A stretch of DNA of 12,951 nucleotides from Candidatus Sumerlaeia bacterium (lineage in GTDB: Bacteria; Sumerlaeota; Sumerlaeia; SLMS01): positions 1 to 12,951 of the forward strand of contig JBBQYG010000119.1 in assembly GCA_038208905.1 (NCBI GenBank). The letters run 5' to 3'. Below are positions 1 through 12,951 of this stretch, piece by piece. The position numbers and the translations under genes were made by a program. The notes under the pieces are model-generated. The model was not told the DNA's origin. It saw only the letters and a list, made by a program, of their open reading frames with translations, and did no database searches. How positions within the stretch are numbered: position 1 is the stretch's first letter; each line of letters begins with the position of its first letter.

Positions 1-1470
1 GGGCTCTACCGGTCTGCCCTGAGATTCCAACAATTGCAGGTTCTCCGCATCCAGCTCAACCGGCGTTCCATGCAGGCCGACGAAGATCGGCATTACGAAA
101 CGCTCCTTCTTCCCCGGATTCCAGAATTGGTATGCCTTCTCCACCTTGGATCGGTGGTTGAAATTCCAGAAGGTGAAGTATCGCAGATGATGCGGCATCC
201 CCGCCAACGGCCCACCCATGCCCTTGAGGATGCCGCCGTTGATCGCGTCATACAGCGTGACGTAGGGTTGTCCCGAGTGCGAATCCATGCGCTGCTCGGG
301 GCCCATCTCGCATCGCCAATAAATCGTACCGACCCCTTGGTACCCCATGCTGGGCCCGTGCCACATGAGGGCGCGATCCTCCAGCAGGCCGCCCAGAAAC
401 CCGTAGCCCGCGCGCGCATGAATCGCGAAGTGCCCGGGACTCCCCGCGAAGATGACCTGAAGGATGGATGTCTGGGAGCAACTCCGGACGTTGATGGCGT
501 GGTTGGTATTAATGAACGAGCAGCGCCTGACCCACGAGTTGGCCAAGCTATCGAGTTCGAGGATACTCCAACCGCCGTCGTCGAGCGCCGTGCGGTGGTG
601 AACGAAGCGCTGGCGCCAATTGCCCATGAAGCAGATGTCTTCCACGCCCACGTTTTCGGCGACGTTGTATGGCTCCAGCGTCCATCCATAGCTGGAGGTC
701 ACGTTGGTGTGGAGTGGCTCGCGAAAGGTGACCGTGTTCCCTTCGATGGCGGCGATGCGGTGGCGCTCCGTTACCTGAATTCCACCCTTGACGAGGCGAG
801 TCATCGTGGCATCGGGCGAGTGGGGCGCGAGGAACTCGGGAATCGCGTCGGTGCTTTGCATGGCGAGCGTCACCCGCTGGCCCACGCGGAGCCGCGCCGT
901 GCTATCAACCGTCACCGAGAAGGTTTCGCGCCGCGCGTCGTCAGTGACTTTCGCAAAGGTGCCCTGCTCCGGATTCTCGAACTTGGGAAGGAACGTGATC
1001 AGGAATGGCGTGCTGTACATCTTGTCGGGGTCGTCGGGAGGGAAGCAGTTCACCATCTGGACGATGGTGCCGCCCTCGGCCATGCCGCTGCCGCGGAGGA
1101 CGATATTCCCCGTCGTGATAAAGGTGGGCTTGCCGTCGTCGTCGAAGGTGTTCATCAGGAACTTGCCGGGGGGAAAGAAGACCACTCCCCCGCCAGCTTC
1201 CTGGGCGGCGGCGATCGCGTCGCGGATCGCCTTCTGGTCGGAGACATTGTCATCGCCGACGGCTCCGTACTTCGTCACGTCGAAGATGGGGCCCGCCACG
1301 TCGGGAATCGGAACCTCGCTGTCCATGTAGCCCGCCCAGGAATAGTCGGGCAGAACCGGTTCCGCCCCGGTCTTGCGCGCCTCGACGAACTGCTCCCACA
1401 CGGGGGTGGCCGACATGGCGGCGCCGGGGAAGGCAACCAATGTGGCGAGGATCCAGCGGTTCAGCGGCAT
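1..1470 (-). CDS. Secreted right-handed beta-helix polysaccharide lyase-like protein (pectate-lyase-superfamily N-terminus; DUF4955/PL29-like); 3' end outside window
   Basis: Missing from the ORF track because there is no stop before the window edge. Manual translation from ATG 1470 (GGAGG 7 nt upstream) gives MPLNRWILATLVAFPGAAMSATPVWEQFVEARKTGAEPVLPDYSWAGY...IFDVTKYGAVGDDNVSDQKAIRDAIAAAQEAGGGVVFFPPGKF...NIVLRGSG...NVGVEDICF...DSHSGQPYVTLYD...PHHLRYFTFWNF...ESQGRPVEP (490 codons, open). It has a signal peptide and the FDVxxYGAxGDD...DxxAIxxAI...GGVVxFPPG beta-helix cap. The DUF4955/PL29 assignment is from recall of family motifs, not a search. Confidence 0.85.
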   Translation of the reverse strand, partial: MPLNRWILATLVAFPGAAMSATPVWEQFVEARKTGAEPVLPDYSWAGYMDSEVPIPDVAGPIFDVTKYGAVGDDNVSDQKAIRDAIAAAQEAGGGVVFFPPGKFLMNTFDDDGKPTFITTGNIVLRGSGMAEGGTIVQMVNCFPPDDPDKMYSTPFLITFLPKFENPEQGTFAKVTDDARRETFSVTVDSTARLRVGQRVTLAMQSTDAIPEFLAPHSPDATMTRLVKGGIQVTERHRIAAIEGNTVTFREPLHTNVTSSYGWTLEPYNVAENVGVEDICFMGNWRQRFVHHRTALDDGGWSILELDSLANSWVRRCSFINTNHAINVRSCSQTSILQVIFAGSPGHFAIHARAGYGFLGGLLEDRALMWHGPSMGYQGVGTIYWRCEMGPEQRMDSHSGQPYVTLYDAINGGILKGMGGPLAGMPHHLRYFTFWNFNHRSKVEKAYQFWNPGKKERFVMPIFVGLHGTPVELDAENLQLLESQGRPVEP

Positions 1471-2570
1471 GGGGAAGCCTCCAATTGGAATTCGCGATTC
1501 GAATCAGTCTCGGCGGCCCGCAGTGCGGCCCGCATATACCCGAGCGCAAACGCCATCCCCGCGTGCCACGGCGCGCCGCAGGTCATCAGCGGCGTGTGGT
1601 CGGGAATCAGCACTCCGGAAAATCCACCGCGACAGAGCGCCGCCAGCACCCGCGGCATGTCCACGTCGCCGTCGTCCACGAAGGACTCTGTGTAGGTAGG
1701 GACCTGACCGCGGACATTGCGGAAGTGGACATAGCCAATGTGGCCGCCGCGCGCAAGGTCCTCCGCCAGCGTATAGACATCGGCCCCGGGCATCTCGGCC
1801 ACGGTGCCGATGCAGAGTTCGATGCGGTTGCTGGGGCTCGGGTAGGAATCCACCATCTCGCGGAAATGAAGCGGGCGGTGCATGAAGCGGGCCTGACCCC
1901 GGACGGTCTCCAGCGGCGGATCGTCGGGATGCGCGGCGAGAACGACGCCTGACTCCTCTGCAACGGGAAGGACGGCCGCCAGAAAGTCGCGGTGGCGACG
2001 CAGGAGCGCTTCGCGCGGGACTGGCGCAAGGACGCCCTCCGGCGCAGTGGGATCGTACACCCGGTTCCAGACCTCTCCATTGCGGATCGGCTTCTGCACG
2101 ACCGGATCGGCGGCGTCGAAGCTGGACGCGCCGGCGCCGCCGCGCCCGCTGGGCAGGCGCCGCGGACCCCAGACCCCGGCGAGGGTGAAGTTGTAGCCAA
2201 GGCACAGAATGCCGGCCTGGCCCATGCGTCGGATGATCGTGCGGATGCCCTCCAGCTGAGACTGCTTTTCCGCCCCGTCGAGAAGGACATCATACCATAG
2301 CGCGGGGTTGAGGTTCTCCAGTGCGGCGAGGCGCAGGCCTTCGCTCTCGACGAGTTCGCGCAGCGCGACGAGTTCCTCCACCGTCCAGAGCTTTCCACGT
2401 GCGCCTGAGACATCCCACCCCTTCGCATCCGCGTCGAAGTGGGAATGTCTCGGCCCGTCGGTCGTGTAGTCGGCCATGTGCACCACGATGGCCGTGGCGC
2501 CCGCCTGGCGCGCAAACGCCAAGTTATCGCGGGTGAGCATCCGCGCGTAGAGTCCGAGGCCGAGTTCCAT
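1461..2570 (-). CDS. uxuA: Mannonate dehydratase (UxuA family)
   Basis: Motifs CLGYNF, VLPVAEESGVVLAAHPDDPP, ELCIGT, VHFRNVRG, ESFVDDGDVDM, LIPDHTP and AFALGYMRA match the UxuA family. The stop overlaps the downstream lyase start by 10 nt. Confidence 0.88.
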   Translation of the reverse strand: MELGLGLYARMLTRDNLAFARQAGATAIVVHMADYTTDGPRHSHFDADAKGWDVSGARGKLWTVEELVALRELVESEGLRLAALENLNPALWYDVLLDGAEKQSQLEGIRTIIRRMGQAGILCLGYNFTLAGVWGPRRLPSGRGGAGASSFDAADPVVQKPIRNGEVWNRVYDPTAPEGVLAPVPREALLRRHRDFLAAVLPVAEESGVVLAAHPDDPPLETVRGQARFMHRPLHFREMVDSYPSPSNRIELCIGTVAEMPGADVYTLAEDLARGGHIGYVHFRNVRGQVPTYTESFVDDGDVDMPRVLAALCRGGFSGVLIPDHTPLMTCGAPWHAGMAFALGYMRAALRAAETDSNREFQLEASPCR

Positions 2571-2591: not shown

Positions 2592-3611
2592 CTATCGAAT
2601 CCGGCATTCGGCGCCCGACTGCCAGTAGTCGGGGCTGGAGCCGAGGATTCGCAGCAGCGGATCCGTGATCTCGTCTAGTCGCTTCACCACGTCGTCGGGG
2701 AGCGCGCGCGTGACGCCCTCGTAGTTCGAGCGCAATTGCTCCACATTCCGCGCGCCAACGAGGACGCAGCTAACACCGGGCTTGGCGGCGACCCAGCCGA
2801 GGGCGAGTTGTTCCATGGCGAGCCCCGTCTCTTGGGCAAGCTCGCGAATCTCGGCCAGTGCCTTGTTCACTTCGGGCTCGGCACCAGGCCCGCCGTGGCG
2901 GGATTGCGGGCGGTCTCCGCGGAAGTGGCGCGTCCTCAGGCGAATCTCGGGAATCTCGTCGATGGTGGCATACTTGCCGGAAAGGATTCCCTGAAGCAGC
3001 GACATGTAGCTCATCACGCCAACGCCGTTCTTCTGGCAGAGTGGGAGGAGTTCCACTTCGATGGCGCGCGAGAACAGGTTGTAGTGAAGCTGATTGAGGC
3101 CGATCTGGACACCGGTGGAGAGCGCCGCTGCCAAGTCGATGGGGCCGAAGTTGCTAACGCCGATGACGCGAATTTTTCCCTCGGATTGCAACTGCCCGAG
3201 CATCTCGAAGGCGGGCTCGATGGGGATGTCGCGGATGGGCCAGTGTACCATGTAGATATCAACGTAGTCGGTCTGGAGGCGGCGCAGGCTCGCCTCGCAG
3301 TGCTTGCGCAGCGTGGCGGGTTCGCAGTGGAGCGGGTTGATCTTGGTGCCGATCACGGCCTTCTCTCGACGGCCCTTGAGGGCGCGGCCAAGGGCCTCCT
3401 CGCTGCGCCCTGCGTTGTACATCTCGGCCTCGTCGAAATAGTTCACGCCCATGTCGAGCGCCGCGGAAATCAGGTCGTATGCCTCGGCGTCTGTATATCC
3501 ACCCCAATAGTCGCCTTCGTCGCCGCCGAACATCCAGCAGCCGAGGCCGAGGACGGAAATTTCGAGACCGGAAGCGCCGCATGGCCGCAGGTCGATCTGG
3601 TTGATGCTCAT
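2592..3611 (-). CDS. Aldo/keto reductase (NAD(P)H-dependent oxidoreductase)
   Basis: SGLEISVLGLGCW, catalytic tetrad in FDEAEMY (D,Y) / IGTK (K) / YMVHWP (H), SLRRLQTDYVD, GKIRVIGVSNF, NQLHYNL and LLQGILSGKY. AAAGGG upstream of the ATG. Confidence 0.93.
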   Translation of the reverse strand: MSINQIDLRPCGASGLEISVLGLGCWMFGGDEGDYWGGYTDAEAYDLISAALDMGVNYFDEAEMYNAGRSEEALGRALKGRREKAVIGTKINPLHCEPATLRKHCEASLRRLQTDYVDIYMVHWPIRDIPIEPAFEMLGQLQSEGKIRVIGVSNFGPIDLAAALSTGVQIGLNQLHYNLFSRAIEVELLPLCQKNGVGVMSYMSLLQGILSGKYATIDEIPEIRLRTRHFRGDRPQSRHGGPGAEPEVNKALAEIRELAQETGLAMEQLALGWVAAKPGVSCVLVGARNVEQLRSNYEGVTRALPDDVVKRLDEITDPLLRILGSSPDYWQSGAECRIR

Positions 3612-3648: not shown

Positions 3649-4677
3649 TTATTTCTTCGCGATGAGCCGCATGTCGTCGAACTTCAGAACGGTATCGGCC
3701 TTGGCCTCGCCGACGCCATAGCCGCTCGCCACGAAATAGACATCCTGAATGGCCTGGAATCCGGCGGGAGCGCGCACGGCCCTCATGTCCGCGAGGGGGA
3801 TGCTGAGTTCCTTCCATCCGCTCCAGTCCACGACGAAGGTGTGGGCGTAGTAGTCCTTTTCGGGCGTCGCGGCATCGTCGGAGTGGAGGATGAATCCGAT
3901 CTTGGCACCATTGGCGACGGCGGAGTGAACCCACATGTTCACCGAGGCTACGCCGGAAAGGTCCTTCGGAAAATTGCGATTCCTGACGCGGTCGGTGGTC
4001 GGCGTGTCCATCCACTTGCCGGAGTATGTCCCACCGTGCGGCTCCTCTGTATCGGGCACCAGGCCACGCCACGGCTCGACGTTCTCGAAGGCGAGCATCG
4101 CCGCGGTGGCCGCATCGAGAGAGAGCGAGGTGGCGGCCCCGGCGGGCGCGACGGCGGGAAAGGAAATGCCGTCGAGCTTGAGGGTTGTGGTCACCTCGGG
4201 CTCGCCAATGCCGTAGCTTGACGATGCGAAGATGATGCTGGTGATCTTGCCGAAGCCCTTCGGCTCGCGGGTTTGCTTCAACCGGGCGAAGGGAATCTCG
4301 ACCTGACGCCAACCTTCCCAATCCAGCGTGATCGTATCGCGATAGTAGTCATCGCCCTCGGTCTCGGGATTGTCGGCACCCAGAACCACGACGATCTTGG
4401 CGCCGGTGGCGGACGGCGACTGAAGCCAGAACGACATGCGGTCGCTGCCGGAGAGATCGAGCGACAGGTCCGTGAGGCGGACGCGGCTATTGACCTTGGT
4501 ATCGGCCCAGATCGCGCACTGGATACCTTCCTTCGCCTCGTTGGGGTCGGCGACCAAGCCCTTCCACGGCTTGATGTCCTCGAAACCGAGGACTGCGGCG
4601 TTGTCTGCGCCGGCAAGGGAGGGAGCGAAGAAGCCCCCCGCAAGCAGCGCGGCGATGCTCCAAAAAGTGGAGCGCAT
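3649..4677 (-). CDS. Secreted protein of two tandem CBM-like (CBM11/CIA30-type beta-sandwich) domains
   Basis: Signal peptide MRSTFWSIAALLAGGFFAPSLAGA starts at ATG 4677 (GTG 4704, preceded by AAAGGG, is an alternative; ATG 4827 lies in the promoter region). Two ~147-aa repeats share FExxxPWxGLV, DLSG, W.xSxxAxGAKI, DYY, DWxGW, IP, PxGF, FxxSxYGxGE and TLKxD. No catalytic domain recognised. Confidence 0.8.
   Translation of the reverse strand: MRSTFWSIAALLAGGFFAPSLAGADNAAVLGFEDIKPWKGLVADPNEAKEGIQCAIWADTKVNSRVRLTDLSLDLSGSDRMSFWLQSPSATGAKIVVVLGADNPETEGDDYYRDTITLDWEGWRQVEIPFARLKQTREPKGFGKITSIIFASSSYGIGEPEVTTTLKLDGISFPAVAPAGAATSLSLDAATAAMLAFENVEPWRGLVPDTEEPHGGTYSGKWMDTPTTDRVRNRNFPKDLSGVASVNMWVHSAVANGAKIGFILHSDDAATPEKDYYAHTFVVDWSGWKELSIPLADMRAVRAPAGFQAIQDVYFVASGYGVGEAKADTVLKFDDMRLIAKK
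3664..4599 (-). repeat. Intragenic tandem domain duplication (units ~4599-4159 and ~4104-3664, period 165 codons)
   Basis: The two halves of the protein align, e.g. DDYYRDTITLDWEGWRQVEIPF vs KDYYAHTFVVDWSGWKELSIPL, joined by an Ala/Pro-rich linker PAVAPAGAATS. Confidence 0.85.
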
Positions 4678-4856: not shown

Positions 4857-4873
4857 ACTAACCCGCGTTAGCA
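4857..4873. promoter_or_regulatory. Putative LacI-family operator, copy 1
   Basis: ACTAACCCGCGTTAGCA. Its reverse complement TGCTAACGCGGGTTAGT matches 6055-6071 at 16/17 positions. It is a near-palindrome with a central CpG, in the divergent intergenic region just upstream of the lacI ATG. Confidence 0.8.
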
Positions 4874-4900
4874 AACGCCCCAACACAAAGGCCCCACCCC

Positions 4901-5923
4901 ATGCCCCCCGTCCGCGCGAAACCAGTAACCATGGCTCATATCGCCGAAGAGGCTGGAGTCGCGCGCACCACAGTCAGCTTTGTCCTGAGCGGTCAACACC
5001 GCGAGCGCGGCATTTCGGACCGCACGGCGGAGCGCATCCGCGAGATCGTGGACCGCTTCAAATTTGTGCCCAACGCAACGGCCCGCAGCCTGAGTCGCCG
5101 ACGCACCGGCATGATCGGCGTCTTCCTCCCGGGATTCAACTCCGTTTGGGGCGAAACCGTCGTCCGGGGCATCCGGGCGCGCCTATTCGATTCCGATGGC
5201 TATGTCCCCCTGATCGCCAGCCAGCACGACGATCCCGACTGGGAGGAGCGGGAGATCAAGCTCCTGATCGAGCGCGACGTGGAGGCCATCGTCTGCTGCC
5301 CCACCGTGAAGACCGAAAACTATCGCCGCATCATGGACCGCGGGATCCCCCTAGTGTTCATTGGGCACCGCGCGAAGGGAATCACCGACGCCAGCTTTGT
5401 CGCGTGGGATGGGCACCGAATCGCGGCGGCGGCCGTTCGCCATCTTGTATCGCGTGGGCGCCGCCGCATCGCCTTCATTGGCCGCGGCGACGAAAACCCC
5501 ACCAGCAGCGAGCGATTCGAGGGATATCGCGAGGCCTTGAAGGAAAACGATCTGGAGTTCCACCGCAATTGGAAGATCAACGTGCCCGACTATCAGGACG
5601 CGGGCCGGATGGTCGCCAAGCTATTCTCCGCCAAGGACCGCCCCGATGCCCTGCTTTCGGACCTGTGGATACAGGCGCTCTCGGCGATGGAGACACTCGA
5701 CGAAAACGGGGTCCGCATTCCGGAGGACGTGGCGCTTCTGGCGCTGGGCGACGCGCCGTTCTGCCGCCATGCGCGCATCGGGCTCTCCTGCGTCGTGGAG
5801 CCAGCGGAGGACCTCGGGCGGCAGGCGGCGGAAATCGCCCTGCACCTCCTTAAGAATCAAGGCGCCCCCGCGATCCAGCGGCTGATTCAGGAGCACAGGA
5901 TCGAAGACCGAAAGACCACGTAG
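4901..5923 (+). CDS. LacI/GalR-family transcriptional regulator
   Basis: N-terminal HTH VTMAHIAEEAGVARTTVSFVLSG, hinge FVPNATARSLSRRRTGMIGV, and a sugar-binding domain with HLVSRGRRRIAFI, ERFEGYREAL and GVRIPEDVAL. Confidence 0.96.
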   Translation: MPPVRAKPVTMAHIAEEAGVARTTVSFVLSGQHRERGISDRTAERIREIVDRFKFVPNATARSLSRRRTGMIGVFLPGFNSVWGETVVRGIRARLFDSDGYVPLIASQHDDPDWEEREIKLLIERDVEAIVCCPTVKTENYRRIMDRGIPLVFIGHRAKGITDASFVAWDGHRIAAAAVRHLVSRGRRRIAFIGRGDENPTSSERFEGYREALKENDLEFHRNWKINVPDYQDAGRMVAKLFSAKDRPDALLSDLWIQALSAMETLDENGVRIPEDVALLALGDAPFCRHARIGLSCVVEPAEDLGRQAAEIALHLLKNQGAPAIQRLIQEHRIEDRKTT

Positions 5924-5938
5924 CCCCGCCCACGCGCC

Positions 5939-5978
5939 ACTTTCCCGCACGCTCGCAAGCCCACAATGGCGGGAAAGT
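5939..5978. terminator. Inverted repeat after the lacI stop (possible terminator or stabilising stem)
   Basis: ACTTTCCCGC (5939-5948) and GCGGGAAAGT (5969-5978) form a perfect 10-bp stem with a 20-nt loop. No U-tract follows. Confidence 0.45.
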
Positions 5979-6021
5979 AGCCGGGCGCCAAGAATTTCAA
6001 TAAACCGGTCCAAGAAAAGCG

Positions 6022-6051
6022 TTGACAGGGGAGGCTCGATATCCGTATTCC
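6022..6051 (+). promoter_or_regulatory. Putative sigma70 promoter of the pilin-lyase operon
   Basis: Perfect TTGACA at 6022-6027, 18-nt spacer, weak -10 TATTCC at 6046-6051, with A-rich sequence upstream (AAGAATTTCAATAAA...AAGAAAAG). Confidence 0.55.
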
Positions 6052-6054
6052 CAC

Positions 6055-6071
6055 TGCTAACGCGCGTTAGT
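6055..6071. promoter_or_regulatory. Putative LacI-family operator, copy 2
   Basis: TGCTAACGCGCGTTAGT contains the perfect 14-bp palindrome CTAACGCGCGTTAG (6057-6070) with a central CpG. It overlaps the predicted transcription start, a typical repressor position. Confidence 0.85.
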
Positions 6072-6139
6072 CGCCCTTCGGCGGCCTCAGCTCACCAGCA
6101 GCGCACACTCCAAACGAGAGAGACCCCGAGGAGAAACGA

Positions 6140-6820
6140 ATGAAACCCGCCAAGGCCTTTACGCTCATCGAACTGCTGATCGTGGTCGCGATTATCGCCA
6201 TCCTCGCCGCCATTGCCGTCCCCAATTTCCTGGAGGCCCAAACGCGGTCCAAGATTTCCCGCGCCCAGGCCGACATGCGCAGCCAGGCGACCGCCATCGA
6301 GGCCTATCGCATCGACAACAACCGCTATAACCCGGGGTACATGACCATTCGCCAGGGAGCGAATGTCTATGCCCAGACATACTTCCCCACCCAGCCCGAA
6401 GATCGGCTTCCGTATGCGTGGAAATACCTCACCACGCCGATCGCCTACATGACCTCCACCCTGATCGATCCCTTCACCGTCGGTGACTATGAATTCGACC
6501 GATTGAGCGTCAAAGGAAGCAATGGCATCGAGTACTGGTATGACGACTATCAGCAGTATGGCTGGGCCCCCGCCGGGCAGAGCGGATACGTGTATTCCCG
6601 CTTTCTCAGAATCGTCAATCGCGGCTATGTTTGGTCGATCTCCAGCGGTGGTCCCGAGAAGCGCACCCAGCAGATGTGGATGGCTCTGGACGGCGAGGAT
6701 CTCGCAGCCGCCAACGGCCACATCAGATTCCCCTACGACCCCAGCAACGGCACCATCTCCGAGGGCTTTGTCGCCCGCACGAGCCGCGGCGTTTACAAGG
6801 AAGTACACCAGACCCAGTAA
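6140..6820 (+). CDS. Prepilin-type N-terminal cleavage/methylation domain protein (type IV pilin/pseudopilin, GspG/PulG-like)
   Basis: Class III signal MKPAKA|FTLIELLIVVAIIAILAAIAVPNF with F+1 and E+5, followed by ADMRS.ATAIEAY, LTTPIAYMTS..DPF and C-terminal YDPSNGTIS. RBS GAGGAG at 6128-6133. Confidence 0.92.
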   Translation: MKPAKAFTLIELLIVVAIIAILAAIAVPNFLEAQTRSKISRAQADMRSQATAIEAYRIDNNRYNPGYMTIRQGANVYAQTYFPTQPEDRLPYAWKYLTTPIAYMTSTLIDPFTVGDYEFDRLSVKGSNGIEYWYDDYQQYGWAPAGQSGYVYSRFLRIVNRGYVWSISSGGPEKRTQQMWMALDGEDLAAANGHIRFPYDPSNGTISEGFVARTSRGVYKEVHQTQ

Positions 6821-6856
6821 CGCGCGAATGCCGGAACTCTCTCAGGAGTGCCTGAC

Positions 6857-7999
6857 TTGAAGCCATCGAGTACCACGGGGAGGCGCGACGCCCAGTTGCG
6901 CCTCCCCTTTCGTATAGACGTTCACGAGCGCGCGCGCGTCGTGGCGCAGGCGACCGCCTTTCTGGCGGAGGAGCCGGTGACCGTGACCGCCAGCCGATGC
7001 GACCGCAGCGCCGGCGGGCTCCACGACTACTACAGCGAGGGCGACTATTGGTGGCCTGATCCGGAGAACCCCGGTGGTCCCTTCGTCCGCCGCGACGGGC
7101 TCAGCTATCCCGATGTTTTCTCCGACCATCGACGCGCGATGCGGCGGCTCAGCATCCAGTCCGCCGCGCTGGCGGCAGCCCATCGCATCACCGGCGAGGA
7201 ACGATTTGCGAAGCATGCGGAGAGGCACCTTCGCGCGTGGTTCGTGAATCCCGGGACGAGCATGACGCCGCACCTTCTCTATGGGCAGGCCATCAGCGGC
7301 ATCACCACGGGCCGCTGCATCGGCCTGGTGGATACCGTGCACCTGATCGAGGTCGCGCTCGCCGCGCGCCATCTCGACCGCGCGGGAGCGCTCTCCCCCG
7401 CCACCGCCGCCGGAGTGCGCGCGTGGTTCCGTGCCTTCATGGACTGGATGATGAACGACCCCATGGGGATCGAGGAGCGCGACCACGGCAACAACCACAG
7501 CACCTGCTGGGCCGCTCAGGTCGCCGCGTTTGCGCTCTTCCTTGGCGACGAGGCGGTGCTCGCGGGCTGCCGCGAGCGCTTCCGCTTTCTCCTAATCGAC
7601 CAGATGGCCCCCGATGGCAGCTTCCCGCTGGAGCTTGCCCGCACTCGCCCCTACAATTACTCGCTCTTCAACATCGAGCTGATGGGCTCCCTATGCCACC
7701 TCGCGTCCAGCGCGGAAGAGAGCCTCTGGGACTTCGAGGCCGCCGACGGCCGCTCCACCCGCCTCGCCTTCGAGTTCGTGATGCCGTATATACTAGACAA
7801 GGCCTCGTGGACATACGGCGAGGACGTCGCCTACTGGGAGGACTTCCCCATCCGCAACGTCGCCACCTTCCTCGCCGCGCTCGCCTATGGCCGCGCGGAT
7901 TGGTTGGAGCACTGGAAGACCCTCCCCAACGACCCCACCGAGGACGAAGTCGTCCGAAACATGCCGATGCGGCAGCCGGTGCTATGGGTGGGTGAGTGA
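6857..7999 (+). CDS. Alginate-lyase-family (alpha/alpha)n polysaccharide lyase (PF05426-like; possibly PL38), no obvious signal peptide
   Basis: HDYYSEGDYWWPDP...RRDG, LRAWF, MTPHLLYGQAI, catalytic-type GNNH, QMAPDGSFPLELARTRPYNYSLFN. AGGAG (6844-6848) overlaps the GTG at 6848 but lies 8 nt before the in-frame TTG at 6857, which is the preferred start. Confidence 0.88.
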   Translation: MKPSSTTGRRDAQLRLPFRIDVHERARVVAQATAFLAEEPVTVTASRCDRSAGGLHDYYSEGDYWWPDPENPGGPFVRRDGLSYPDVFSDHRRAMRRLSIQSAALAAAHRITGEERFAKHAERHLRAWFVNPGTSMTPHLLYGQAISGITTGRCIGLVDTVHLIEVALAARHLDRAGALSPATAAGVRAWFRAFMDWMMNDPMGIEERDHGNNHSTCWAAQVAAFALFLGDEAVLAGCRERFRFLLIDQMAPDGSFPLELARTRPYNYSLFNIELMGSLCHLASSAEESLWDFEAADGRSTRLAFEFVMPYILDKASWTYGEDVAYWEDFPIRNVATFLAALAYGRADWLEHWKTLPNDPTEDEVVRNMPMRQPVLWVGE

Positions 8000-8622: not shown

Positions 8623-9183
8623 ATGGCCGAGTTGGTAAGTTTCTACAGAGTGACAGACGAGGAGGAGGCGATCCTCCTGGCTGCTGTTGACCGTGCCGCC
8701 TACAAGGGCGTGGAGGCCGTCGGCTCGAAGACGGCTCACGTCTTTGCCGTGACGAAGAAGACCGAGAAGGCCGTCGCCGACTACAAGAAGGGGACCGCGC
8801 TGCTCGGGCTGACGCAGCTCAAGGAGGGCCTTCTGGCCCTGGGCATTGGCTTTGGCACGTTGGGCACCCCTGCGGCTGCCACGAAGGGAAGGCGCGGTCG
8901 CCCGCCCGGCTCCGGCAAGAAGGCTGCCGCTGCCCCCGTCGGCAAGCCGGGACGCAAGACGCGCAAGCCGCGCGCACGGCTGGCCGACGACCACAAGAAG
9001 TGGATCGCCGCAGAGGCCGTGAAGGGCGGCTCCTCCGCCTCGATCTTCAAGGCCTTCGTGGAGAAGTTCGGCTTCGCTCCCTCCTATCAGACCGTGAACA
9101 ACTACGCCAAGGCGGCGAAGCCCCAGAAGCCCGCCGCAGCCAAGCCCAAGGCGACGAAGCCCAAGGCGAAGGCCAAGAGCTGA
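8623..9183 (+). CDS. Basic Lys/Ala-rich DNA-binding protein (AT-hook + HTH-like + histone H1-like tail), candidate nucleoid-associated protein, 186 aa
   Basis: AGGAG at 8611-8615 precedes ATG 8623. AT-hook KGRRGRPPGSGKK; helical module LADDHKKWIAAEAVKGGSSASIFKAFVEKFGFAPSYQTVNNY; tail AKAAKPQKPAAAKPKATKPKAKAKS. All 28 Lys codons are AAG. A terminator follows. Confidence 0.85.
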   Translation: MAELVSFYRVTDEEEAILLAAVDRAAYKGVEAVGSKTAHVFAVTKKTEKAVADYKKGTALLGLTQLKEGLLALGIGFGTLGTPAAATKGRRGRPPGSGKKAAAAPVGKPGRKTRKPRARLADDHKKWIAAEAVKGGSSASIFKAFVEKFGFAPSYQTVNNYAKAAKPQKPAAAKPKATKPKAKAKS

Positions 9184-9204
9184 TCAGTCGGAATCGTTCA
9201 AGTG

Positions 9205-9243
9205 GCGCCCCCGCGAGTAGTTCGCGGGGGCGCTTTGCTATTG
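9205..9243. terminator. Rho-independent terminator hairpin between convergent genes
   Basis: Perfect 12-bp stem GCGCCCCCGCGA (9205-9216) / TCGCGGGGGCGC (9222-9233), 5-nt loop, followed by TTTGCTATT. It sits between the stops at 9183 (+) and 9238 (-). Confidence 0.85.
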
Positions 9244-12200
9244 TGGTGTCGGTGTCGCGATGCGTCCCGGCATGGCCGGATAGGGGCTCGCAGTTTCGAT
9301 GAGCCGCGTGAGGAGATCGACGCACTGACGCTGGAGTTCCTCGCCGGAGGGCTCCATGACGCTTTCGATATTCCAATTCTTGACACCACTCACCTCGTAC
9401 TTCCAGTTCTTCCCGGTGGGCGCATTGTCCTCGATAAACAGTCCGAGCTTCTCCGAGGAAATCGGCTGGGAAAGGTCCGGCCAAAGGTCGGCGGGAATCT
9501 CCATCGTGAGGGCGGGTTCGCTGGCGGGGCCGGTCTGCTTCAGGAGTCGCCCGACGCGGGCCATGATGGGATGACCGTCTGAGATTCTCGCAATGCGGGC
9601 AAGCAGCGCGGCCCGGACCGCGAATGGCCGCGCCAGGGCCGGATCGATCGCGCGCAGTGCGTCGGCCATCTCGCATTGGGCGCGAATCCATCCCGATTCG
9701 CGGGGATTCGACATGCAAGTGATGGAAGCTTCGGCGCGCCCCTCCCAGGACTCGCGAAGCCAGTTGGCCACAACAAGATGGAAGTTGGCGAGATCGGGCC
9801 GCTCGTTGCGCTTCAGCTCCAGTTCCAAGCAATAGAGTGTGCTATCCAGCGCGTTGACGTGCCGCGCGGGTAGTATCTTGCGCGAGTATTCGGAGTTTCG
9901 CAGGTAGAGCAGCCGTGCCTCTTCGTCGAGCCCCAGCAGAATGCAAAGCTCTCCGATATTGTCGAAGTAGAGCGCGGATTCCGGATTGTCGATTTTCAGA
10001 TCCTCGAAGCGATTGCGTAGCGCCGTGCCCGCCTGCTCCCGGGCCTCGTCCATTCGTCCCTGCAGCGCATAGATCGCCGCCAGCCGACGATGGATGTGTT
10101 CGTTCGTCACTTCGAGTCCATAGAGGACATCCATCGCCTCGCGATAGATTTCCTCCGCCTCCTCGAATCGACCCTCGGCGGCCCTTACGTCGCCACGATA
10201 GACCATGCCGAGCGTCTTTGTCTGCGGAAAGGTTCCCTGCGCCGTCTTCGCGATCTCGTACTCGCGCATCAACGTTGTGTAGGCCTGATCGTAGCGACCG
10301 AGCGTCGTGTCGAGGAGCGCCTGCATCTGCAGGACGCGGGCGACCTCGGTGTGCACGGGACCAAGTGATCCCTCGCGGACGGCGAGCGCCTGTTGCAACA
10401 GCTTGTCGGATTCGCTGAACCGCCCCGTGGCGCGATACTGCCGCGCCAAGTCGCGATAGGCCTGACCCATGGCCGGGTGGTCCGCTGCAAGGGACTCCTT
10501 CAGGATCGTGTCGGCGCGGCGTCGCATCTCACGTGCCTCGAAGTGGCGCGATTGCGCCGCGCGATAGTCGGCCAGAAGTCGCAGCGTCTCGGCGACGCGG
10601 GGATGCCGGATTCCGTAAGCTGTCTCGCGGATGGCGAGAGCCCGCTCCAGCATCGCGCTTCCCTCCGCGACGATAGATGGGAGTTTTTCCTGCCCCTTGG
10701 AGTACTGGCCGACAAATAGCAGGACGTCGGCGATATCGTTCAGGATGGATGCGATTTCGGGGTCGTCGGCGGGGAGCAGCTTTTCGCGAATCGCGAGAGC
10801 GGTCTTCCAGTCATCGATTCCAAGGTCGCGCCGGGACGTCCGCGCGCGGACGCGACCCCGATGCCAAAGCGCATTGGCGACGGGAAGGCTCTCCTGGCCG
10901 AAGTTCTGCACACGCTCGGCCAGTTCCGCCTCGATGAGCGGTTCCAATTCCTGGTACTCCGCCAGCATGAACATGCCGAGGGCATATTCGTTGAAGGCGT
11001 TCATGTGGATCGGGTCGGCAGTCTTGAGGTACTCCTTGGTAACGGGCTCGATACCACGCGCATACTCCACCCCACGGCGGTAGTCGCCAAGGAGGCGTCT
11101 ATACAGCGCCAGCTTGAGCGACAGCTCTGCCCAGTTGGTCTCGAGAATCTCGAGGCTCCGGCGATAGTAGGTCTTGTAGGAGTCCGCGCGGTCGCCCGAG
11201 TCGCGATAGGCCTCTGCGGTCAGCGCGAGCAGGCGCGCATACTCCGGCGAGCGTGCGCCACTGCGCTCGCGGACGATCTCCGCCGCTTCTTCCAGATGGC
11301 GCGTCGCAAGGTCGGGATTTCCGCGGAGGAATGCGGCATATCCCATGCCCACCAGCGGAGCGGCCGATCCCGGCCGGGCGGCATTGGCCTGGCGATAAAT
11401 CTCGTACGCGCGCGGATAGTCGTCGCGGCTGGCGGCCTCCGCCACAAGCAAGTTCGCCTCCGCAAGCAGCAGCGGGAAGGGCTCGCTCTCCAGACGGTTG
11501 CTGACCATGGGATTCTCGGCGAGACTCTCCCGCTCCTCGCGCAGAATCTGGCGCTGCTTCATCAGGGCGTTGTAGTCGGCCTTCTGCCCGGGCGTGGTCT
11601 GGCGGGGGCTCGACGCCTCCGCCAGCGTGGAGGGAAGCGCGATGTTCAGCGCGAGGCGCTCCGCCAGTTGATTCTCCGCGCTGCGCAGAGCGTTCACCCG
11701 GTCGAAGGTTTCCACGGCGCGATTGCGCTCAAGGATGCGGTAGCTGCCGAAGGCCACGCCGAAGAGCAGCAATGCCGTAGCCACCAGCAGTACGCGGCGC
11801 TGCACTTTCAGCCACGCCGAACGCATCTGGCGCTGGTTGATTTCCACCATGAGCGCGTTGCGCGTCCCTTCGTGCCTGAGGCGTTCCGCTTGAACGCGCG
11901 CCAGCACCAGATCGCCATTGGAGATCGCCGCGCGGGCGAATTCCAGAACCACCGCCTCGCGCAGGGGAGGATATCCTGGATTCGCGGGCCACAGGACGCG
12001 GGCGCGGCTGAGCTGGCTACTCAGGTCCGTCAGCGCGCGATAGTCGCCATTTGCTTCCTTGAGTCGGCGCTCAACGACCTCTATCAGCGTCGCCGCCTCC
12101 CGCCTTCGGCCTGCGCCGGAGAGATAGTCCTGAAGGCCGGTGAGGAAAGCCTTCACAGTGGGCACACGGTCTTCAGGCCGGATCTGCATCGCGCGGAGCG

Positions 12201-12951
12201 CCAAGTCCATCAGCTCCTCCGGCGGCTGCTGCTGTCCTTCTCCATAGGTGGGCATCGCGATGGCGCCGACGCTCGCCATAACGAACGCCTCGGCAGAGTC
12301 CTCCGAGCTGTGGGGCGGCGCGCCGGTGAGGATGTAGAAAAGCGTGGCGCCGAGGAGATAGACGTCGGTCCAGGGCCCCGTTTCGCGCGCCGTGCGAAGG
12401 GTCTGCTCCGGTGCCATGAACGCGACGGTCCCGCTGGGGCTCGGGGCGGTTTCGCGCGTGGGCAGGATATCCAGCGCGGGAAGCGACTCGTCGTCGCCGC
12501 GCGCCAGGTCCATATCGAAGACCATCGCCATGCCCCAATCCATCAGGAGCACTTCGCCGAATTCGCCGACCATCACCTGCGATGGCTTGATGTCGCGATG
12601 CACGATCCCGCGGGAGTGGGCGAATGCCACGGCCTGCGCCACCTGGGTCAGGATCGGGAGGTGCTTGGCGATGTACTCCTCCTCCTGGGTGCCGCGCTCC
12701 GACCGAAGAAGGGTGTTCCACTGGCGCCCGCGCACCAGCTTCATCGCGATCATCGGGCGGCCATCGTCGTCGATCGTCAGGTCATAGATCGGGAGCACGT
12801 TGGGGTGCTCCAGCGCGCCCATGATGATGGCCTCGCACTGGAAGACGGACTCAAGAAAACGGCCCTCGGCACTGGTGGGCGAATGGCTCTTGTAGATGTC
12901 GTCGCGAAGGCGCTTTGCGGCGATGAACCGGCCTAGCGACTTCTGGTAGGT
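9238..12951 (-). CDS. Hanks-type Ser/Thr protein kinase with a transmembrane helix and C-terminal TPR repeats; 5' end outside window
   Basis: The frame is open to the window edge: TYQKSLGRFIAAKRL...FQCEAIIMGALEHPN (subdomains II-IV), HRDIKPSQV, DWG (DFG variant), GTVAFMAPEQ, DVYLLGATLF, RPEDR. TM RRVLLVATALLLFGVAFGSY at ~11740-11800. TPR-like units include LPADDPEIASIL, GIRHPRVAETL, LAADHPAMGQAY and LGPVHTEVARVL. Confidence 0.95.
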   Translation of the reverse strand, partial: TYQKSLGRFIAAKRLRDDIYKSHSPTSAEGRFLESVFQCEAIIMGALEHPNVLPIYDLTIDDDGRPMIAMKLVRGRQWNTLLRSERGTQEEEYIAKHLPILTQVAQAVAFAHSRGIVHRDIKPSQVMVGEFGEVLLMDWGMAMVFDMDLARGDDESLPALDILPTRETAPSPSGTVAFMAPEQTLRTARETGPWTDVYLLGATLFYILTGAPPHSSEDSAEAFVMASVGAIAMPTYGEGQQQPPEELMDLALRAMQIRPEDRVPTVKAFLTGLQDYLSGAGRRREAATLIEVVERRLKEANGDYRALTDLSSQLSRARVLWPANPGYPPLREAVVLEFARAAISNGDLVLARVQAERLRHEGTRNALMVEINQRQMRSAWLKVQRRVLLVATALLLFGVAFGSYRILERNRAVETFDRVNALRSAENQLAERLALNIALPSTLAEASSPRQTTPGQKADYNALMKQRQILREERESLAENPMVSNRLESEPFPLLLAEANLLVAEAASRDDYPRAYEIYRQANAARPGSAAPLVGMGYAAFLRGNPDLATRHLEEAAEIVRERSGARSPEYARLLALTAEAYRDSGDRADSYKTYYRRSLEILETNWAELSLKLALYRRLLGDYRRGVEYARGIEPVTKEYLKTADPIHMNAFNEYALGMFMLAEYQELEPLIEAELAERVQNFGQESLPVANALWHRGRVRARTSRRDLGIDDWKTALAIREKLLPADDPEIASILNDIADVLLFVGQYSKGQEKLPSIVAEGSAMLERALAIRETAYGIRHPRVAETLRLLADYRAAQSRHFEAREMRRRADTILKESLAADHPAMGQAYRDLARQYRATGRFSESDKLLQQALAVREGSLGPVHTEVARVLQMQALLDTTLGRYDQAYTTLMREYEIAKTAQGTFPQTKTLGMVYRGDVRAAEGRFEEAEEIYREAMDVLYGLEVTNEHIHRRLAAIYALQGRMDEAREQAGTALRNRFEDLKIDNPESALYFDNIGELCILLGLDEEARLLYLRNSEYSRKILPARHVNALDSTLYCLELELKRNERPDLANFHLVVANWLRESWEGRAEASITCMSNPRESGWIRAQCEMADALRAIDPALARPFAVRAALLARIARISDGHPIMARVGRLLKQTGPASEPALTMEIPADLWPDLSQPISSEKLGLFIEDNAPTGKNWKYEVSGVKNWNIESVMEPSGEELQRQCVDLLTRLIETASPYPAMPGRIATPTPQ

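Follow-up and report, generated by a model that had tools for sequence, protein, structure and literature searches.

The window analysed here is the whole 12,951-nt contig JBBQYG010000119.1 (C119) of the 4.24-Mb, 93.9% complete genome assembly of an uncultured Candidatus Sumerlaeia bacterium (G000). It encodes a 226-aa (pseudo)pilin that stands among genes for alginate breakdown and belongs to an expanded family of GspG-fold proteins. We are highly confident that this pilin is a member of the alginate locus and is dedicated to its substrate. As no importer of the SusC/D type was found, and as one of approximately 33 such pilins lies in the alginate cluster behind a predicted operator and is co-inherited with it across genera, the protein would appear to be a likely swap-in part for alginate capture. 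The reading that we favour, albeit tentatively and at rather less than an even chance, assigns it to a shared type 4 filament, in which it would be the part specific to the capture or import of alginate.

The locus extends beyond the window. Contig L244, which is nearly identical (99.7%), shares sequence with the left end of the window as well as with the start of contig C3, and this makes the window the right arm of a single alginate locus of approximately 25 kb. The leftward operon of the window runs on into C3, where genes for two lyases (PL39-like and PL6), two dehydrogenases (a Zn and a hydroxyacid dehydrogenase), an SSS inner-membrane symporter, a cupin and a GDSL esterase are located. 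With its polysaccharide lyases (PL6, PL29-like, PL38-like and PL39), SSS transporter and uronate catabolism, the locus presents the clustered carbohydrate-active enzymes (CAZymes), regulator and transporter for one glycan by which SusC/D-type polysaccharide utilisation loci (PULs) are recognised. Named database relatives of the pilin and of one locus lyase carry the label Candidatus Sumerlaeota.

Concerning the substrate, the PL6 lyase is closer to AlyGC (E 6e-78) than to chondroitinase B (4e-22), the PL39 lyase matches 6JPH at E 1e-204, the PL38-like lyase of the window has 3NFV (E 8e-56) and 8BDQ (E 5e-38) as its best solved relatives, with the NNH motif aligned, and the best match of the carbohydrate-binding CBM32 domain is that of AlyQ. 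Since these top matches are alginate proteins, alginate is the preferred substrate, which narrows the uronic-acid glycan proposed by an earlier reading of the window (the sequence-only reading). A glycosaminoglycan substrate, raised by the PL29-like genes, was set aside on the same grounds, while glucuronan is still a possible substrate of the PL38-like enzyme. The two BT3328-like PL29 genes (window 1-1470 and C3:12139-14457) belong to a group annotated as chondroitin/hyaluronan lyases that is conserved in alginate loci both here and in the available parts of PMC13274419; such proteins are candidates for an unrecognised alginate activity.

The regulatory evidence centres on two copies of a predicted LacI operator in the window (Table 1), against 0.04 expected by chance, and none of 200 shuffles reached two. 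That one 17-bp site precedes both the pilin gene and the divergent uronate operon and lacI had been claimed beforehand and is correct, as the 17-mer at 4857-4873 and the reverse complement of 6055-6071 are identical at 16 of 17 positions. A whole-genome scan, likewise called for by that reading, returned six sites with at most one mismatch (two in the window, two on C3 and one each on C41 and C173) compared to 0.057 expected under a fifth-order Markov model, all of them at alginate-type genes. A further site with two mismatches lies at uxaC on C211. The genes behind the sites outside the window encode a PL29-like CBM32 protein, a BD-FAE esterase and two secreted proteins without a family match, in addition to the uronate isomerase with a nickel hexonate epimerase. 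At the C211 position (C211:1786-5934, L059) a nickel-pincer hexonate epimerase and a gluconokinase are divergent from uxaC under a degenerate operator, a gene set that suggests a route for saturated mannuronate/guluronate.

The transcription start of the pilin promoter had been described as overlapping the palindrome: the perfect palindrome and a canonical -35 element stand, but the -10 element is poor, and no promoter with the hexamer at 6022-6027 came up in the promoter scan. A ribosome-binding site (RBS; GAGGAG) is present at 6128-6133. TTGAC is found 23-29 nt ahead of the operator at four pilin promoters and at five promoters of proteins bearing the C-terminal tail described below, i.e. 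one architecture. A second, weaker palindrome occurs at 6000-6013, just upstream of the pilin -35 element, and likewise at tailed-protein promoters; its copies (C173:5201, C3:11936, C49:10062, C55:5792, C57:13047 and C85:9770) include several before other sugar-catabolic genes, and it is possibly the site of a global sugar regulator, a noisy assignment with 41 intergenic sites at three mismatches.

The regulator combines a helix-turn-helix with a sugar-binding domain, and the palindrome stands before its targets and is conserved along with it, as is characteristic of a LacI regulon; LacI would be released from the predicted operator by a uronate. LacI orthologues (62-72% identity) are present in five of 30 relatives. 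The operator precedes the pilin gene in four of six genomes (with at most one mismatch in G000, G020 and G024 and with two in G003), and operator sites at alginate genes are also found in G003, G020 and G024, which upholds the claim of a uronate-glycan regulon in which the pilin is conserved. That the pilin depends strictly on this LacI was not supported, since two of the six pilin genomes, G014 and G018, have no operator before the pilin gene and no LacI orthologue at E 1e-60 (a GntR-type regulator lies upstream in G014), while G001 and G009 retain LacI without PL39, other alginate genes or this pilin, their sole site with at most one mismatch being unrelated.

Across the phylum, orthologues of the pilin head were identified in six of 75 genomes (G000 counted), all within the seven genomes that possess PL39. 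A tailed, secreted beta-helix family occurs in the same seven; its profile was built from six of them, thus only its absence elsewhere and its match in G005 are new. The nominal hypergeometric p value for the co-occurrence of pilin and PL39 is 4e-5 (25 genomes of the order), a figure overstated by kinship. Seven of the eight orthologue matches in relatives sit among alginate genes, often first in a catabolic operon: before the PL38-like lyase (G003), before PL39 (G018), before dehydrogenase-cupin genes, or before a reductase-PL29-SSS-PL39 operon (G014, G020 and G024), in which an aldo-keto reductase gene directly follows the pilin orthologue. The pilin has accordingly persisted in six genomes of two families although gene order was reshuffled and the regulator changed, and the gene contexts, together with G014/G018 and G001/G009, indicate that it tracks the substrate genes and neither the regulator nor the adjacent lyase. 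In G005 (80% complete), which has PL39 and the tailed protein, a pilin orthologue was not found, and a candidate at a contig end belongs to another subfamily. The orthologue in G014 (L047:9600-10300) appears to be frameshifted close to its 3' end, which may reflect an assembly error. In G001, which lacks PL39, a pilin of another subfamily is divergent from the LacI orthologue with a two-mismatch site (L015:9510-11496); G009, of the same genus, has no pilin at the equivalent place.

A scan of metagenomes yielded five loci, namely one near-identical strain, one orthologue by an alginate-locus dehydrogenase and three weak matches that were dropped. Among 80 PL39 loci, many of them short, prepilins were observed at three of five from Sumerlaeota (one whole, two as contig-end heads), two of ten from Planctomycetota, one of 41 from Verrucomicrobiota/Kiritimatiellales and none of 24 from other groups. 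At least five non-Sumerlaeota loci carry TonB receptors instead (Pfam-confirmed), a lower bound as the motif screen used is insensitive.

A special link between the pilin and the adjacent lyase, which the sequence-only reading had implied, was not sustained: the two genes adjoin in only two of six genomes, a hairpin lies between them, and the pair was consequently ruled out as a functional unit. The N-terminus of the lyase has no hydrophobic stretch and hence no signal peptide, which makes it unlikely as a cargo or pilus-borne enzyme. Its start is placed at TTG 6857 (RBS at 6843-6848), leaving a 36-nt gap to the pilin gene, with GTG 6848 and TTG 6896 as alternatives. The hairpin (6877-6907) is predicted to act as a partial terminator or messenger stabiliser. 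Similar structures follow the pilin gene in G003 (-28.5 kcal/mol) and G014 (-20.6), with a weak one in G018, and hairpins are stronger after the paralogues (median -23.4, n=32) than after control genes (-17.7, n=206; p 0.001); as the hairpin is weak after two of eight orthologue ends, extra pilin message is plausible but not general.

The pilin possesses an intact class III signal (PF07963, 33.4 bits, cut-off 21.2; TIGR02532, 29.3 bits, cut-off 16.3) with a short basic leader, a predicted G/A|F cleavage site with Ala at -1, Glu at +5 and a hydrophobic alpha1. Its structural model (pLDDT 89.9, helix 9-60) is nearest to the type II secretion system (T2SS) major pseudopilins EpsG (Z 7.8, below 8; root-mean-square deviation 2.5, 99 aligned) and PulG (Z 7.0). 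A Foldseek search, which had been suggested, gave no match under E 0.001, and Atlas structure rows called T2SSG match the pilin at TM 0.62-0.64. With GspG the protein shares the class III signal and the long alpha1, and GspG-type heads are its nearest, if not close, solved structures; it differs in approximately 80 extra residues of subfamily-specific insertions, in having 33 paralogues and in standing outside any gsp operon (its neighbours are lacI and the lyase gene, and the gsp-like cluster is on C33); it scores 48.5 bits against the GspG equivalog TIGR01710, cut-off 88.85. Neither is it the type IVa pilus major pilin PilA (NF041775, 58.9 vs 400; the head is devoid of Cys and thus of a C-terminal disulfide region), nor a DUF1559 (SBP_bac_10) prepilin (no PF07596, PF07963 being the only match at E 0.001), nor part of a Verru_Chthon cassette (TIGR02596, 25.6 vs 70; TIGR02599, 18.9 vs 256.5), its gene standing single.

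Eight database proteins share 51-59% head identity with the pilin and the next ones 43% or less. In a quick tree the subfamily forms one branch of 12 sequences with SH-aLRT 97; six of them are database proteins taken without their gene context, and one is the G020 copy discussed below. Residues Y67, R71, Q72, R89, W133, D135, Y137, Y152, R154, Y163 and W180 are invariant in the subfamily, and nearly none of them is found in 31 paralogues. This set, rich in Arg, Tyr, Trp and Gln, may resemble uronate-binding sites, judging from composition.

The nine window proteins scanned include no pilus assembly or transporter gene, in agreement with the sequence-only reading, and the assembly machinery is encoded elsewhere, as it had supposed: the genome contains one PilD (C123), six PilB/GspE, four secretins and ten PilT over cut-off, PilC/GspF is present, and PilM genes lie on C1 and C12, away from the pilin gene. 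The lipopolysaccharide and Mla genes, together with the secretins, imply an outer membrane. The lack of a SusC/D-type importer, noted beforehand for the window, extends to the genome, with no match to PF00593 (TonB receptor), PF07980 (SusD) or PF06178 (KdgM) in the 93.9% complete genome and positive results in control genomes; PF00593 occurs in 12 of the 75 phylum genomes, with one match each.

An inventory of prepilin genes, which had been proposed, gave 52 with PF07963, of which 33 (the window pilin included) constitute one GspG-fold paralogous family; most are scattered singletons next to unrelated genes, and only one of the 33 adjoins a LacI gene, contrary to the association anticipated. 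Another group of proteins is defined by a Trp-centred C-terminal tail. Using a matrix trained on G000 itself, 43 of 3185 proteins carry this tail, where shuffling yields 0.35 and internal cuts yield 0.25, and 33 of the 43 have an N-terminal hydrophobic stretch. A tailed gene adjoins six of 33 paralogues (0.71 expected, p 1e-4), so that 27 paralogues are without an adjacent tailed gene and 37 tailed genes without an adjacent pilin. In relatives, the pilin corresponding to that on C7 lies by gamma-glutamyltransferase genes at three of seven loci and by tail-like genes (by eye) at three of seven, and that on C48 is accompanied at five of nine by tail-like genes or by genes homologous to its tailed neighbour. 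Both beta-helix proteins of the alginate regulon bear the tail; they are predicted right-handed beta-helices according to Atlas features and a fold search (one match at E < 0.001), for which neither Pfam nor NCBIfam nor the fold search indicated a specific family. Prediction of a complex between the pilin head and the tailed protein on C173 scored 0.00 in two runs in which the controls did not fold, and is not evidence.

Several further observations concern these two groups. Paralogues occur at nutrient modules (C7:6814-7458, C44:7486-8100, C48:20510-21130, C49:11151-11747 and C18:27013-27711) comprising a polyglutamate/GGT operon, a GH27 galactosidase, a phytase, a DHDPS-like lyase plus SSS and an M42 peptidase; four of the five have a tailed gene within two genes. 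PilT genes are next to tailed genes in two of ten cases (C12:9646-11980 and C260:290-3865; p 0.02) and within two genes in three of ten (p 0.005). On some members of the same families (L052:9977-11323, L158 and L163) the Trp tail gives way to a different C-terminal tail, which has a Val-Pro ... Leu-Ser/Asp pattern and lacks Trp.

If the pilin is indeed a filament subunit for alginate capture, its expression would likely be induced by alginate breakdown products through release of LacI on binding uronate, and the prepilin would be processed by PilD and exchanged into a shared, secretin-gated type 4 filament, rendering this alginate-specific. Alginate might then be bound by the invariant Arg, Tyr, Trp and Gln residues or by the co-regulated tailed beta-helix protein, and retraction of the filament could pull it up to the outer membrane or across it, a task otherwise performed by SusC/D; competence pili import DNA through retraction. 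PL6, PL29-like and PL39 enzymes would cut the polymer in the periplasm or at the surface, the SSS transporter would import the products, and the PL38-like lyase, cupin, reductase, UxaC/UxuA, KdgK and aldolase would complete breakdown in the cytoplasm.

A number of points weigh against this proposal. The closest solved folds are those of T2SS major pseudopilins, whose filaments push cargo outward without PilT, and such a fold together with the tail motif fits export equally. The PilT copies could instead be used for twitching or for taking up DNA. The head carries no net positive charge (15 K+R vs 16 D+E), one copy in G020 lies outside alginate genes, and G020 has one TonB receptor match. The importer search covered TonB receptors, SusD and KdgM, so that alginate may enter by another route such as general porins or OprB-, LamB- or AlgE-type pores. 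Enrichment of the paralogues near CAZymes, which had been expected, was not observed (six of 111 neighbours vs three of 119, p 0.32). For this comparison Pfam was applied at E 1e-15 and covered 119 of the 131 control proteins, and the six include glycogen enzymes. Outside Sumerlaeota a prepilin lies within 10 kb of PL39 at only three of 75 loci (L178, L181 and L189, two planctomycete and one Opitutaceae), all of DUF1559 type.

The nearest published parallel is pgaptmp_000050 of Verruconatronum alginivorum (Verrucomicrobiota), a PulG-like pseudopilin with 67 homologues encoded in an alginate-induced PL39/PL29/SSF operon (PMC13274419). According to the available parts of that source, its proteome level was 0.513 vs 0 and 0, the highest of genes 046-060 in one replicate (the first column being taken as alginate from the sign of the fold change), while the canonical GspG (0.064 vs 0.035), GspE and secretin were not induced. 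As in the present genome, the pseudopilin lies in a cluster with PL39, two PL29/DUF4955 proteins, SSF, LacI and hydroxyacid dehydrogenase and has many paralogues. That organism belongs to another phylum and has TonB systems, and the parts consulted contain no operator, tail-motif or co-inheritance analysis. Its authors interpret the pseudopilin as export machinery, which also counts against import, and the likeness to our pilin drawn here is one of gene context.

The same export idea furnishes the strongest alternative here, which we nevertheless regard as rather unlikely: the pilin would be a cargo-specific adaptor, acting as an alternative major pseudopilin of a T2SS by recognising co-regulated secreted proteins (tailed beta-helix, PL29-CBM32 and PL6) and pushing them through a secretin, oligomers entering by another pore. 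The GspG-like fold, the number of tailed proteins with an N-terminal hydrophobic stretch, their adjacency to six paralogues (a pairing that recurs in relatives for two other subfamilies), the promoter architecture common to pilin and tailed proteins, and the proposal made for V. alginivorum all argue for it. However, the genome has separate canonical GspG/H/I/J-type genes by GspE/F, most paralogues and tailed genes are unpaired, and the entry of alginate oligomers across the outer membrane is left unexplained. Known T2SSs, moreover, use a single GspG for all cargo.

In its broadest form the filament proposal would hold that Sumerlaeota replaced TonB-dependent SusC/D import by a retractile secretin-gated type 4 filament that takes a different major subunit for each nutrient, approximately 30 subfamilies and their Trp-tailed partners each binding one polymer (alginate here, polyglutamate, galactosides or phytate elsewhere), which is then reeled into the periplasm in the way that DNA is by competence pili. 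This generalisation we consider unlikely. Akkermansia MUL2, for which pilus-dependent uptake of mucin glycans is summarised in PMC13174399, resembles it in tying type IV-like pilus parts to complex-glycan uptake in a diderm; MUL2 itself is a single conserved locus of machinery genes that includes PilM, whereas here one of 33 GspG-fold subunits stands in a catabolic regulon away from the machinery. Bacteroidota SusC/D PULs are comparable in that lyases, esterases, binding proteins, an inner-membrane symporter and a regulator serve a single glycan under common control, but with no SusC/SusD match in the genome the regulated surface-side slots are filled by the pilin and the tailed secreted proteins.

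Decidedly less probable is an alginate-specific adhesion pilus that tethers the cell to an alginate gel or biofilm matrix near the secreted lyases without a role in import. The evidence of regulation and co-inheritance fits it equally, adhesion has been proposed for MUL2 of Akkermansiaceae (PMC13174399), and pilus-mediated adhesion to biopolymers is described for Planctomycetota in the available parts of PMC11131199 and PMC5394234, the latter reporting fibres that bind polysaccharide (dextran). Planctomycetota share with Sumerlaeota large prepilin expansions (DUF1559) and polysaccharide-binding fibres, although the pilin lacks PF07596 and the fibre subunits are unnamed in the parts of PMC5394234 consulted. 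Against adhesion, the fold is nearer to pseudopilins than to long surface pilins, the Cys-free head is of the same tendency, and the importer gap is not filled. Least probable of all is an orphan paralogue that the locus has picked up, or a non-polymerising, membrane-anchored periplasmic glycan-binding or signalling protein, since the scattered paralogues and the different paralogue beside the LacI orthologue in G001 are outweighed by retention of the pilin through rearrangement and regulator change, by its intact class III signal and by the 51-59% head identity among orthologues.

Table 1. Predicted features of the window (contig C119).
Feature	Position	Strand	Family match or remark
Secreted DUF4955 / BT3328 (PL29)-like lyase, cut at contig end	1..1470	-	PF16315, PF12708
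UxuA-like mannonate dehydratase family	1461..2570	-	PF03786, 128 bits; under NCBIfam uxuA cut-offs
Aldo-keto reductase, candidate uronate/DEH reductase	2592..3611	-	PF00248
Secreted tandem CBM11-like protein, first gene of leftward operon	3649..4677	-	PF03425, two stretches; start via codon model
Predicted operator, 1 mismatch, between lacI and divergent operon	4858..4871	unstranded	same position in G003
LacI-family regulator, start 4901 or 4931	4901..5923	+	PF00356, PF13377
TTGACA, -35 element of predicted pilin promoter	6022..6027	+	
Predicted LacI operator, perfect 14-bp palindrome over predicted pilin transcription start	6057..6070	unstranded	
(Pseudo)pilin, 226 aa, alginate-locus subfamily of expanded Sumerlaeota GspG-fold group	6140..6820	+	
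PL38-like alginate lyase, predicted cytoplasmic	6857..7999	+	PF05426, 249 bits
13-bp GC hairpin with short T tract, 3' of pilin	6877..6907	+	-30.8 kcal/mol, z -5.6

The truncated lyase at the left end of the window is 531 aa at full length in L244, and its paralogue on C3 matches NF058554 under cut-off. To the right of the alginate genes, a very basic 186-aa protein (8623-9183, plus strand) that contains an RGRP stretch reminiscent of an AT-hook and bears a tail of Lys, Ala and Pro gave no match in Pfam and NCBIfam scans and is possibly a nucleoid protein; its gene is followed by a 14-bp terminator at 9204-9234. The remainder (9238-12951, minus strand) encodes a fusion of a Ser/Thr kinase with a long TPR region; the 5' end of the gene lies beyond the contig, and no link to the locus was seen.

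In the available parts of PMC8092238 and PMC10866078, Sumerlaeota pili are mentioned solely in relation to twitching or not at all, and our literature search returned no description of the pilin expansion, the tail or the locus, with the proviso that subscription papers and supplements may differ. The alginate locus bears on how glycans cross the outer membrane of polymer-degrading diderm bacteria that have few or no TonB receptors, and on what the dozens of orphan prepilins do in Planctomycetota-Verrucomicrobiota-Chlamydiota (PVC)-type and neighbouring phyla. By linking one pilin subfamily to one substrate, one operator and one partner family, it renders these questions testable, and this pilin subfamily could serve as a marker of alginate use, just as other subfamilies could mark other substrates.

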